A stretch of 14,153 nt of DNA, from the UHGV virus genome UHGV-1658972; one strand, written 5' to 3'. This document shows, one piece after another, positions 3,001 to 6,000 of this stretch; positions within the stretch are counted from its first letter, which is position 1, and every line of letters begins with the position of its first letter. Position numbers: made by a program. The stretch comes from a virus.

Positions 3001-6000
3001 TTTGCGATATTTCACGCTTATCATTCAGAGTCAGAATCATCATCTTTCTCCTGTTCTTTGTGCTGATTGAGCATTTTGTTCATCTGACGAATGAATTCTT
3101 CGTCTGACCAGTTATCTGTAAAACTCATTTCCTGCGATACCACGGAAGGTTGATAGCTGATTTCATCGCTTTATTTGCTTCAAGCCACATTTTTGAATCA
3201 CCAATAAATCTGGCTATTACTGCTTTGTTTTGTGCCGCACGAAGCATCTGGTGATTAATGGCTATTTCATTGCGCATAATAAGACCTCAACTCTTTTCCA
3301 TCCGTCACGTAATTTACGGGTGATTCGTTCAAGTAAAGATTCATTTAATTGGAAGGCACCCATGCGAGCGCCTCCCGCGATTGCGTAAATCATGGGTGGT
3401 TCCTTATGTTGGTTTTATTAGTAGGTTATTTTTGTTGCGAATACTTCGCCTTTTACGATGGCTGTTATGATATTTTTAGCAACATCTTCTGATGCGCCAA
3501 CCTTGATAAGGTCAGCAAGTATTTTGTTATTTACTTCTTTTCGGTGAGCTTTATCCTTTGCTCTACGCTCTTCTTCGTCCTTGATTCTTTTTTCTTCTGC
3601 TATTCTGGCTTGCTCTTTTGCTTCAGCCTCGCGCCGGATTCGTTCAGCCTCCTCCTGTGCTTTTCTGCGTTCTGCTTCAATTGCCGCCTGCTTTTCTCTT
3701 TCAGCTCGTTCTGCTGCCTCTTTTGCTTCGCGCAGTGCTCGTTGCTCGGCTTCAATGCGTTCACGCTCTGCACGTTCCGCTGCGGCCTTAGCTTCTGCTT
3801 CTCGCCTTGCTGCTGCTTCAATTTCGGCTTTTGCCTTTGCTTCGGCTTCTGCTCTGGCTTTCTCTTCAGCTTCTCTTTTTAAGCGTTCTTCATGCTCTCG
3901 CTTTTCCTGCTCCGCTTTGAGTCTTGCCTCTTCTCTTTGGCGGTCAAATTCGCGATCCATCAAAATAGCTATTTCATGGTCAGACTCAATTTGCTTTGCG
4001 AGAGCTTCAGCTGCTGCCTTAGCTTCTTCTTCGGCTTTAATCCGCGCCTGTTCTTCCTCATAATCAGTAAGAGGCTGGCGTGCCTTGGCTTTCAGCTCAT
4101 CAAGGCGATCACGCACTGTCTTGCGGTTAGCATCAATTAGCTTTGGAATTTCCTTCAGTTCAGCAACAAGGTCTTTGCCAAGACCATCGAGATATGTTTT
4201 CGTCTGCGCAACTTTATACGCCAGAGAAGCGATCTCCTTTCTGCCCTTTGCCGTTGTGATATCAGGCACAAAGGACATAACTTCACGTTCAACCTTTTGA
4301 AGGATTTCTTCAATCTGGTCGGCAGACTGAAATACAGTCATTGCATTTGCTTTTTCAATAACAACTAAATCTGTTACTTCACTCATATATCCTCCATCAA
4401 AAAAATTGCCCTCACACTGGAGGGCAAAGAAGATTTCCAATAATCAGAACAAGTCGGCTCCTGTTTAGTTACGAGCGACATTGCTCAGTGTATTCACTCG
4501 TTGGAATGAATACACAGTGCAGTGTTTATTCTGTTGTTTATGCCAAAAGAAGGCCGACTATGCGGCCTGTGATGTTAGATTTACTTTCATTTTTGAACGG
4601 CAGCTACAATTATGATGGAATGTACAAAACCACTTTCCAGTTCATAGAAGTGGATGATGGCATAAAATAATCCCACGACTCGTTAGCTACGAGCTCTTTA
4701 TTAACTGTGGTGGCAGCAATTTCGGCATCGCCTTTATTATTAAAAATGTCGTTCGAATACTGACATTTTCCATCTGCATGCACATATAAAATATCATATG
4801 TCTCTGTATCGTAATAACCACTTATGTCTCTGATAACAATTCCTGGCTTCAATGATTTAATTTTCTCGTCCATATCTCACCTCAAATAAGTGGTTTGCTG
4901 CGAAAATAAATCCGCTTAAGTTACCTGTTATTTATCCCACCAAGTTCCGTATCTATCTATCCAGTTACACCAATCATCGACACTCCATTTTGCTGTGTCG
5001 CATTTTGGCAAATGGCATGAATATCTACCTTCTTTGTAAAGTCGGCGTTTGACTTTCTTGAGCATGGCTCACCTCAATCGTAATAAGCTGGAATTGATTT
5101 TCCGCGTTGTTTCTGGCGGCCTGAGCAAGTCACACCCATTTCACTGCGTGGCTTGCGGTAGTAAATACGGTTCTGTTTACGCTCGACTTCTTCTGCCTTC
5201 TTGCAGCGAAGGCTTCCGAGTGATGCTGCTTTATCTGCTCTGACGCAACCAGAGAGCTTTAGCGCAATTTTTCGCGCCAGTCGCTGCTCTTGCATTGCCT
5301 GTTCACGTTGAGCCTGTCTGCGTGCTCTGCGGCGATTTCTGGCGTTATCGTCAGCCAGATATGTAATGACTACTGCCATGTTGACCTCCGATGATTGACT
5401 TTGGCGATTGGATGGCCGGTGCTGAACTCCGGCTTATTTACAGGCACCTTGTTCTCCCGAAGCTCTCCTGCGCGCATCAGCCTGCGCATTCATCCAATCC
5501 CAAAGCCAACTACTCTTTGGTTCCCGCATTTCGGCGGGACAATTCCATCAATGTTAAAGAGCCTGCCAATCTGTTCCGTTTGGCTACCAGCGTCCTGCTG
5601 ATGGCTTAAATTTAAGATCTCTTTAATTAATGGTCAAGAGTATTTTTGAAGAAAACTTAAATTTTCTTTCGTAACTTAAGTTTGGCTTTGATTTTTAAAG
5701 GAAATAAAAAAAGGGGCGAATGCCCCCTTATGGAAGGTTTGCTAGTTTTGCATCGACAACTACGCCGATGATTTTGCAGTTCCCGTTGATCTCGATCATC
5801 GGATATTGTGGGTTAAGTGGTTTTAGAAACTTCCTGCCTGCATCAATAACTAACTTCTTGAAAGTTGCCTCGTTTTCTCCTTCGAGCTTTGCAACTACCA
5901 GTTTCCCGTTACGCGGCTCTACTTCAGGATCGACGAGTATTATCATTCCTTCAGGGATACTGAGACCGGCCGGAGCCGTCATTGAGTCTCCCTTCACGTC

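Follow-up and report, generated by a model that had tools for sequence, protein, structure and literature searches.

An Agt-like protein with a predicted long charged helix, encoded in the leftward operon of a lambdoid prophage

In phage phi80 the gene agt (PHI80_40, AFV29176.1) is recorded in GenBank as 'anti-toxin for Gam; Mog (modifier of Gam)'. The adjoining gene, gamL, is recorded as 'host RecBCD/SbcCD enzymes inhibitor; toxic without Mog' and is followed by recT and exo. A 2012 study of phi80 by Rotman and colleagues reportedly found that gamL is toxic and that an antidote gene, agt, 'apparently encoding a modifier protein', lies nearby; lysogens of phi80 are also reported there to be recD and sbcCD phenocopies. 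The antidote role of phi80 Agt is taken here as annotated in the GenBank notes and as reported in that study. A homologue of agt was analysed in a stretch of viral DNA of 14,153 nucleotides (UHGV virus genome UHGV-1658972), the whole of which is called the window. The gene belongs to the leftward operon of a prophage of the lambdoid type. Its product is read below as an accessory protein of the recombination or anti-nuclease module, with a long helix between two small end domains, a reading to which we give about even credence.

3418-4386, minus strand: agt-like gene (322 amino acids plus stop codon; equivalent to Sf6 gene 33, D3 orf53 and phi80 agt), from open reading frame (ORF), translation and homology
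4391-4395, minus strand: Shine-Dalgarno sequence GGAGG, 4 nucleotides 5' of the ATG, read from the sequence

By BLASTP, phi80 Agt/Mog and the agt-like protein were 51% identical (169 of 334 columns, E 2e-64) over residues 1-322 of both. The N-terminal domain matched phi80 agt by tblastn at E 2e-18 (43% identity). The two proteins share their length (322 amino acids) and their succession of N domain, helix and C domain, the last ending in I-x-Y. Both genes stand in the early left operon, after N and terminators and before the Rec module. A 99%-identical gene of phage HF4s is labelled 'similar to phage phi80 Agt; Gam antitoxin protein'. Judged by sequence similarity, membership of the Agt family is secure. 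A preliminary description of this DNA had called the function unknown, which no longer holds, as a homologue with 51% identity is annotated as the antidote to GamL toxicity. Two of its guesses, a spacer and a host-interaction protein, remain compatible with the Agt homology; its third, a scaffold, is weighed below with the coiled coil.

A profile of the N-terminal 120 residues matched 5,533 cluster representatives (clusters at 50% identity) at E <= 1e-3, and 4,659 at E <= 1e-10. Phage records with an N-domain match numbered 191 and were dominated by Pseudomonas (58) and Vibrio (52). The protein matched PHROG 1376 end to end (E 5e-110). Sf6 gp33, whose gene is 98% identical in DNA, and orf53 of Pseudomonas phage D3, with an N-domain match of 55%, belong to the same family and have no recorded function. 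The gene is thus already catalogued, as Sf6 gene 33, D3 orf53, phi80 agt, PHROG 1376 and RefSeq WP_001580126.1.

Searches for other relatives were negative. No Pfam family was matched at E <= 1 in the agt-like protein, none was common to 106 relatives, and there is no Pfam model for the family. None of the PHROGs matched (1376, 17211, 21365) has an assigned function. Sequence and profile searches of the Protein Data Bank (PDB) with the N and C domains gave non-significant matches only, so that the profile comparison proposed earlier for the terminal domains produced no significant match in PDB or Pfam. Fold searches of the models returned generic helices or unnamed family members only. No function was found in the literature under the names TolA-like, Sf6 gene 33 or mEp043. 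Neither Agt nor TolA appears in a 2025 survey of lambdoid Rec modules (PMC12315714).

The ORF is a real, selected protein-coding gene, since dN/dS (nonsynonymous over synonymous substitution rate) against the Sf6 gene was 0.016 (dN 0.001, dS 0.084), the Shine-Dalgarno sequence is strong and there are thousands of homologues; its translation, assumed in the preliminary description, is borne out by the same evidence. For the N domain against an Erwinia homologue dN/dS was about 0.05. The start codon is the ATG at 4386 and the stop codon occupies 3418-3420, giving a product of 322 amino acids from the minus strand. The automatic ORF list places the start further out, at TTG 4440; ATG 4386 was taken as the true start because GGAGG lies 4 nucleotides upstream of it and every homologue begins MSEVTDL. 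DNA 98-100% identical to the gene was found in 35 phage records, including Sf6 gene 33, IME10 'Orf53', HK544, mEp043, mEp213, mEp234, CUS-3, Sf101 and Stx1a-converting phages, and two further Erwinia phage records matched at 60-80%. Matches were present in 530 of 5,426 complete E. coli genomes (about 10%), labelled 'hypothetical' or 'TolA'. In the E. coli chicken isolate MS1657 the gene is identical, and the left part of the window is common to both.

Glutamate (62 residues), alanine (60), lysine (36) and arginine (34) make up 60% of the protein, and together 80-97% of each 30-residue window across residues 151-280, as the preliminary description had indicated for its E/A/R/K low-complexity core. 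It had also described the plus strand here as rich in C and T and as giving rise to spurious antisense ORFs, and both observations stand. The core DNA is 71.6% pyrimidine on the plus strand (A 9.7%) vs 50.9% for the whole window. Inside the gene the plus strand holds five ORFs of 57-160 amino acids (3544-3882, 3581-4063, 3618-3791, 3892-4140 and 4085-4300); their products are rich in Ser, Phe, Leu, Cys and Ala, and the ORFs are artefacts of codon composition.

An alignment of 106 diverse relatives defined three regions.

4042-4386, minus strand: N-terminal conserved domain, residues 1-115, two short helices and the beginning of the long helix (alignment, AlphaFold2 (AF2))
3535-4041, minus strand: helical middle region, residues 116-284, with the conserved ESDHEIAILMDREFDR segment and the E/A/R/K core at residues 151-284 (composition, periodicity, AF2)
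3418-3534, minus strand: small C-terminal domain, residues 285-322, and stop codon (conserved in 59 aligned relatives)

Across relatives the median lengths were 115 residues for the N domain, 180 for the middle region (range 136-255) and 38 for the C domain. The flanks of the core, noted earlier as ordered segments, are of ordinary composition and conserved, which makes this a three-part protein. In the N domain R49, D85 and E110 are invariant among the 106 relatives and some 20 further positions, many of them basic, are more than 90% conserved; the AF2 confidence (predicted local distance difference test, pLDDT) was 84-88. The C domain has the consensus HRxxIN...L...G..E..AK....AIA.G.I....I.Y in the 59 aligned relatives, with a nearly invariant terminal Y. 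Its resemblance to helical hairpins of the helix-hairpin-helix (HhH), RuvA_C or UBA-like kinds is a hint from sequence comparison: matches to PDB profiles were weak and non-significant (E 0.02-0.7), and a Pfam scan of the 59 C domains gave weak, non-significant matches to Glycos_trans_3N in 11, RuvA_C in 2 and HHH_3 in 2.

The preliminary description had read the core as heptad-like repeats. Periodicity did not uphold this. The hydrophobic periodicity of 3.5 residues expected of a heptad coiled coil was absent from the core (z = -1.06) and from the relatives (median -0.32, with 5-6% of the 106 above 2), and a finer scan of the core gave no peak at 3.5 residues. An apolar stripe, mostly alanine, was found instead at a period of 3.65-3.7 residues, or about 11/3 (z 4.2-5.0 in the query; 44% of relatives above 2). 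Charged residues form 62% of residues 151-284, and large hydrophobic residues are very few there. Opposite charges at i/i+3 and i/i+4 were enriched (score 0.52 vs 0.33 in shuffles, z 5.8), and this pairing was general in the family (median z 4.0; 91% of relatives above 2). By these measures the core carries the signature of an ER/K-type single alpha-helix (SAH) with an alanine stripe, not of a heptad coiled coil. SAH domains of the ER/K type are known, for example, in myosin VI and myosin X. The agt-like core shares with them a high content of E, K and R and the enrichment of opposite charges at i/i+3 and i/i+4; it differs in its 26% alanine, arranged in a 3.65-residue stripe that classical SAHs lack. 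The likeness is physical, not evolutionary.

AF2 models were made of the monomer only, and so have no bearing on oligomers. For the 322-residue form, modelled from the alignment of relatives, they predicted short helices at residues 12-20 and 22-37, followed by two long ones at 46-193 and 204-295; the break between these, at 192-202, was of low confidence (mean pLDDT 86, predicted template modelling score (pTM) 0.35). A natural 197-residue Klebsiella variant was predicted as one unbroken helix at 46-170 (pLDDT 96-98, pTM 0.54), and the break is read as uncertainty, not as a hairpin, because of this variant. A continuous helix from 46 to 295 would by calculation measure about 37 nm. An intramolecular hairpin joining the N and C domains, as in the first AF2 model, was not upheld, since the variant is predicted as a single helix.

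These results also bear on the earlier proposal of a classical oligomeric coiled-coil structural or scaffold protein, in which self-pairing of the E/A/R/K region would give a dimer, a trimer or an intramolecular hairpin. Helices could pack straight, or with a slight right-handed twist (hendecad), along the alanine stripe with its period of about 3.65 residues, and the 322-residue model shows two long helices with a low-confidence break. This proposal is nevertheless quite unlikely, given that neither the query nor the 106 relatives have a heptad signal, that the break is gone from the 197-residue variant (a single helix at pLDDT 98) and that residues 151-284 offer so few large hydrophobic side chains.

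Many database records label the protein as a TolA-like protein of the cell envelope, for which composition alone speaks: TolA domain II is likewise a long helix rich in Ala, Lys and Glu, and is the source of the label. The agt-like protein scored 9.0 bits (E 0.73) against NCBIfam TIGR02794 (tolA_full), where the cut-off is 59.45. It has no Pfam TolA domain and no TolA C-terminal domain, and it has neither a hydrophobic segment nor an N-terminal membrane anchor, the highest Kyte-Doolittle 19-residue mean being 1.03, at residue 293. Its gene stands in a phage early operon beside recombination genes. A TolA identity is effectively refuted by model score, anchor, C-terminal domain and context, and we regard it as hardly credible. 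With a predicted isoelectric point of 5.5, the protein would be cytoplasmic, since it lacks a hydrophobic segment.

Length polymorphism of the repeat region, which the preliminary description had suggested looking for, was found among relatives in E. coli and Klebsiella: natural full-length versions had 197, 221, 238, 245, 262, 322 and 334 residues. The gene contains a pair of direct repeats.

3775-3801, no strand assigned: first copy of a 27-nucleotide direct repeat, partner of 4006-4032
4006-4032, no strand assigned: second copy, partner of 3775-3801

The copies are 89% identical and lie 231 nucleotides (77 codons) apart. The 245-residue variant (P0010) lacks exactly 77 residues between two AKAAAE motifs. 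The loss matches the repeat interval, so this form is read from its sequence as a repeat-mediated deletion. The E. coli allele was examined in 65 IMG/VR loci whose N domain was at least 97% identical: 50 encode 322 residues, about ten carry frameshifts or truncations, one runs off the end of its contig and one starts within the gene. In 109 divergent cluster representatives the median length was 333 residues (interquartile range 311-351). With a modal length of 322 residues and a narrow family range, length is therefore tolerant of change, not free.

The broken copies of the E. coli type, some 10 of the 65, have 19, 116, 130, 138, 284 or 306 residues (L078-L083, L076, L098, L035, L033), and could reflect prophage decay or sequencing error in repetitive DNA. 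The match in CUS-3 (CP000711.1) spans 970 nucleotides against the 969 of the query and is annotated there as two proteins. The two halves are matched separately by PHROG 17211 (N part) and PHROG 21365 (C part), which may stem from split annotations. In five proteins (P0007, P0070, P0075, P0100, P0114) the N domain is fused to an unrelated C-terminus, for instance an Ea22-like tail or one of the DUF2856 type; probably these genes arose by recombination between prophages or are chimeric, unless the repetitive core misled the assembly into joining them. Between the window gene and phi80 agt (L115:5001-5969) the proportion of nonsynonymous differences (pN) was 0.25 in the core, 0.42 in the N domain and 0.45 in the C domain. 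That the core is more alike than the end domains suggests intragenic mosaic exchange or constraint on the core sequence.

The features of the leftward operon, and the nut site of the rightward strand, were located as follows.

5609-5637, minus strand: pL-like promoter TTGACC, 17-nucleotide spacer, TAAATT (promoter scan; a consensus match only)
5522-5563, minus strand: putative nutL, with boxA-like GGCTCTTTA at 5563-5555 and boxB hairpin core at 5537-5524 (sequence, RNA fold)
5074-5379, minus strand: N-like antiterminator gene, upstream in the leftward operon (PHROG 271, 'anti-termination protein N-like', E 5e-36)
4543-4568, minus strand: second, weaker terminator-like hairpin AGGCCG-CATAGT-CGGCCT (4568-4551), then TCTTTTGG (terminator scan, RNA fold)
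4399-4427, minus strand: intrinsic terminator TTGCCCTC-CAGTGT-GAGGGCAA, then T7; tL2A-like (terminator scan, RNA fold)
3262-3393, minus strand: cIII, next after the agt-like gene (so annotated by RefSeq in the identical MS1657 region; tblastn in 60 of 80 related loci)
3125-3277, minus strand: kil (RefSeq annotation of the MS1657 region; tblastn in related loci)
1824-2735, minus strand: RecT single-strand annealing protein (RefSeq annotation; 59% identity to phi80 RecT)
1358-1846, minus strand: Gp157 family protein, PHROG class Mu Gam-like end protection (PHROG 253, E 1e-54; RefSeq 'siphovirus Gp157 family')
6651-6694, plus strand: putative nutR, with boxA-like sequence at 6651-6659 and boxB core at 6679-6692, just after cro (sequence, RNA fold)

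The order in the operon is N-like gene, an 87-residue ORF, the two terminators, the agt-like gene, cIII, kil, RecT and Gp157. The stronger terminator (4427-4399) combines an 8-bp stem (5 G-C pairs) and a 6-nucleotide loop with a run of seven T that ends 3 nucleotides before the Shine-Dalgarno sequence; its RNA fold centroid was -13.2 kcal/mol. The homologous hairpin of Sf6 is labelled in the record by Casjens as 'terminator, homology to lambda tL2A'. In the candidate nutL, as in the candidate nutR, a boxA-like GCTCTTTA is followed about 16-20 nucleotides on by a 14-nucleotide boxB core, CCGCCGAAATGCGG, which is identical at the two sites. The strong terminator just upstream of the Shine-Dalgarno sequence, reported earlier, is thus confirmed and joined by a weaker one. 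The claim that the gene is expressed only with N antitermination is likewise well supported by the two terminators, the Sf6 tL2A label, the PHROG 271 gene and the nut sites: because two terminators precede the gene, an N-like gene and nut sites are present, and lambda biology is established on this point, expression would depend on N.

An ORF of 103 residues at 2732-3043 (minus strand) overlaps the start of recT and occupies the slot of phi80 gamL. It has no similarity to GamL, and its match to PHROG 3486 carries no function; it was rejected as a GamL analogue. It could be another accessory gene of the Rec module.

Neighbouring genes were compared at 25 species-level loci (Enterobacterales, Aeromonadales, Methylococcales, Burkholderiales and an alphaproteobacterial metagenome-assembled genome), at offsets -2 to +4. 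The Pfam families of the neighbours included ERF (8), RecT (4), YqaJ exonuclease (4), SSB (3), Rad52 (2), AAA_24 (Sak4-like; 2) and DUF3799 (2). At the most distant loci the direct neighbours were RecT (L019, L020), ERF and YqaJ (L029), a NERD nuclease (L017) and a PolB-like exonuclease (L018). In Pseudomonas phage JBD44 a 'TolA' gene (gp65) is followed by an Erf-like gene (gp64) and an exonuclease gene (gp63), in that order; in Vibrio phage 1.036.O a 'coil containing protein' is followed by a RecE-like exonuclease, an unannotated gene and an OB-fold protein. In E. coli-type phages tblastn gave, as annealing protein, an Erf-like protein annotated 'Bet' alone at 32 loci, a Sf6-type Erf alone at 11, matches to both of these queries, which cross-match, at 8, and RecT at 6. 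A Gam or GamL gene, at the loci that have one, is the next gene downstream of the agt-like gene (L012, L016, L099, L107, L108, L112).

The order in E. coli-type phages, tL2, agt-like gene, cIII, kil, small ORFs and a variable annealing protein, also invites a different explanation: a host-takeover or lysogeny-decision factor unrelated to recombination, placed in the pL operon as such genes commonly are and directed at another host machine. The pL neighbours CIII and Kil inhibit FtsH and FtsZ, respectively. The block tL2, gene, cIII and kil is constant in these phages as the annealing protein downstream of it varies, and the gene occupies the slot of lambda ea10, between tL2 and cIII. Phages outside the enteric group, however, lack cIII and kil, and in them the gene directly adjoins RecT, Erf, exonuclease or SSB genes; the family's sole functional annotation, moreover, relates to a nuclease inhibitor. 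A factor of this kind is rather unlikely.

The phi80 locus has the order N, tL1, kil, orf41, agt, gamL, recT, exo, with agt directly upstream of gamL. In this prophage cIII and kil lie between the agt-like gene and recT, and the Rec module in the window consists of RecT and the Gp157 protein of the PHROG class 'Mu Gam-like end protection'. Several observations weigh against an accessory role in recombination or nuclease control. Queries with phi80 GamL, Sf6 Abc2 and lambda GamS found no counterpart in the window by tblastn at E <= 1e-3, a difference from phi80 by which the sole activity that the family is credited with cannot, in the form described, hold here. Across the family tblastn found Gam or GamL at just 2 of 27 GTDB loci and 5 of 80 IMG/VR loci, and the unrelated Abc2 at 50 of the 80. 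In enteric lambdoid phages the host-targeting genes cIII and kil separate the gene from the annealing protein, and its position could reflect operon order. The recD and sbcCD phenocopy that phi80 lysogens are said to show would imply some expression in the lysogen, which is at odds with strict dependence on N. Structural and profile matches, finally, give no biochemical clue.

The anti-RecBCD functions found near the family thus include all four kinds, and some loci have none. 'Gam antitoxin' is probably too narrow a name for it. As most members have no adjoining Gam, neutralising Gam cannot be what the family does in general, nor can it be the function here as stated.

Other identities were tried. 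In a survey of annealing proteins in Firmicutes phages, DUF1351 often adjoins recT/redB, erf or sak4, in a slot where Mu Gam-like and Gp157 proteins also occur (PMC8093625). DUF1351 (PF07083) thus occupies the same type of neighbourhood in Firmicutes phages as the Agt-like family, with similar size and helical nature, and the analogy of context is striking. DUF1351 was represented by a protein of Enterococcus phage vB_Efm_LG62 (Pfam E 2e-18), aligned with relatives to give a set of 18 sequences. Pfam detected no DUF1351 in the agt-like protein or the 106 relatives, and comparison of profiles by hhalign gave a probability of 0.5% (E 0.12), with a DUF1351 alignment of limited diversity (49-95% identity). 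Homology to DUF1351 is supported neither by Pfam scans nor by profile against single sequence nor by profile against profile. The protein orf233 of Sfi21, considered as a DUF1351 protein, proved to be recorded as Sak4-like. No PADLOC match was obtained for the agt-like protein or five neighbours, and a component of anti-phage defence was discarded. A relation to the N-terminal region of RecE or to 'RecE-2' found nothing in its favour by BLASTP or hhalign.

From the homology, the synteny and the sequence features we infer fold, activity, partners, spacer role and oligomeric state as follows. The agt-like protein would be cytoplasmic and would be made with the delayed-early products of the leftward (pL) operon. 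N, loaded at nutL, would carry RNA polymerase through both tL2-like terminators into the gene. The predicted protein has a conserved helical N head (residues 1-115), a very long helix from about 46 to 295 and a C-terminal helical hairpin of 38 residues; the distal 135 or so residues of the helix would be of the charged ER/K type with the alanine stripe. The helix may serve as a semi-rigid spacer that keeps two terminal binding modules at a set distance. On the strength of the homology to phi80 Agt and the conserved place at the head of phage recombination modules or beside them, the protein most probably tunes how the phage handles the host nucleases acting on double-strand ends (RecBCD/SbcCD) and its own end-protection and annealing proteins. 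The phi80 homologue is said to neutralise the toxicity of the RecBCD/SbcCD inhibitor GamL. Since Gam, GamL and Abc2 were not found here, the partner would have to differ, and might be a host target, DNA ends, or Gp157 or RecT. For the family as a whole the target would be one that all these phages meet, be it host RecBCD or SbcCD, DNA ends, or the proteins of annealing and end protection.

In a broader and more tentative form of the accessory-protein reading, Agt-like proteins would be a general, hitherto unrecognised component of the recombination modules of Proteobacterial phages, possibly the functional counterpart of DUF1351 in Firmicutes phages. The N head and the C hairpin would bind two different partners, one perhaps a protein that protects ends, or the DNA ends themselves, the other a host nuclease or annealing protein, with the ER/K helix as a ruler of about 20-40 nm, and the antidote effect on GamL would be one consequence of this activity and not the function proper.

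Two further features of the window lie to the right of the leftward operon. A DnaB-like replicative helicase of 797 residues (8288-10681, plus strand) is interrupted by an intein with a LAGLIDADG homing endonuclease: Pfam DnaB_C is matched in two stretches, with LAGLIDADG_3 and Hom_end at residues 393-454. The intein is inserted in the P-loop after GMGK, and its end reads ...VTHN|T. In MS1657 the prophage, identical otherwise, has lambda-type O and P genes in place of this helicase. Genes for tRNA-Asn(GTT) and tRNA-Thr(TGT) lie at 13214-13369 (plus strand), just downstream of a gene for a Q-type antiterminator and ahead of a holin-like ORF at 13488.

12634-13122: Q-type antiterminator gene (Pfam Phage_antitermQ)

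The label 'TolA / cell envelope biogenesis', carried by hundreds of genes in E. coli, Klebsiella, Pseudomonas and Vibrio phages, is a compositional artefact and needs replacing. The family behind it is very large (5,533 clusters) and is found at or beside the recombination module in phages of Gamma-, Beta- and Alphaproteobacteria. The phi80 pair of Agt and GamL is its one functional handle, and that annotation has been under-propagated. The interest lies in the size of the family, in its steady association with recombination modules and in the mismatch with the only function so far proposed. If the family modulates the inhibition of RecBCD/SbcCD, or annealing proteins, it would bear on the conflict between phage and host over DNA ends, and possibly on recombineering toolkits.

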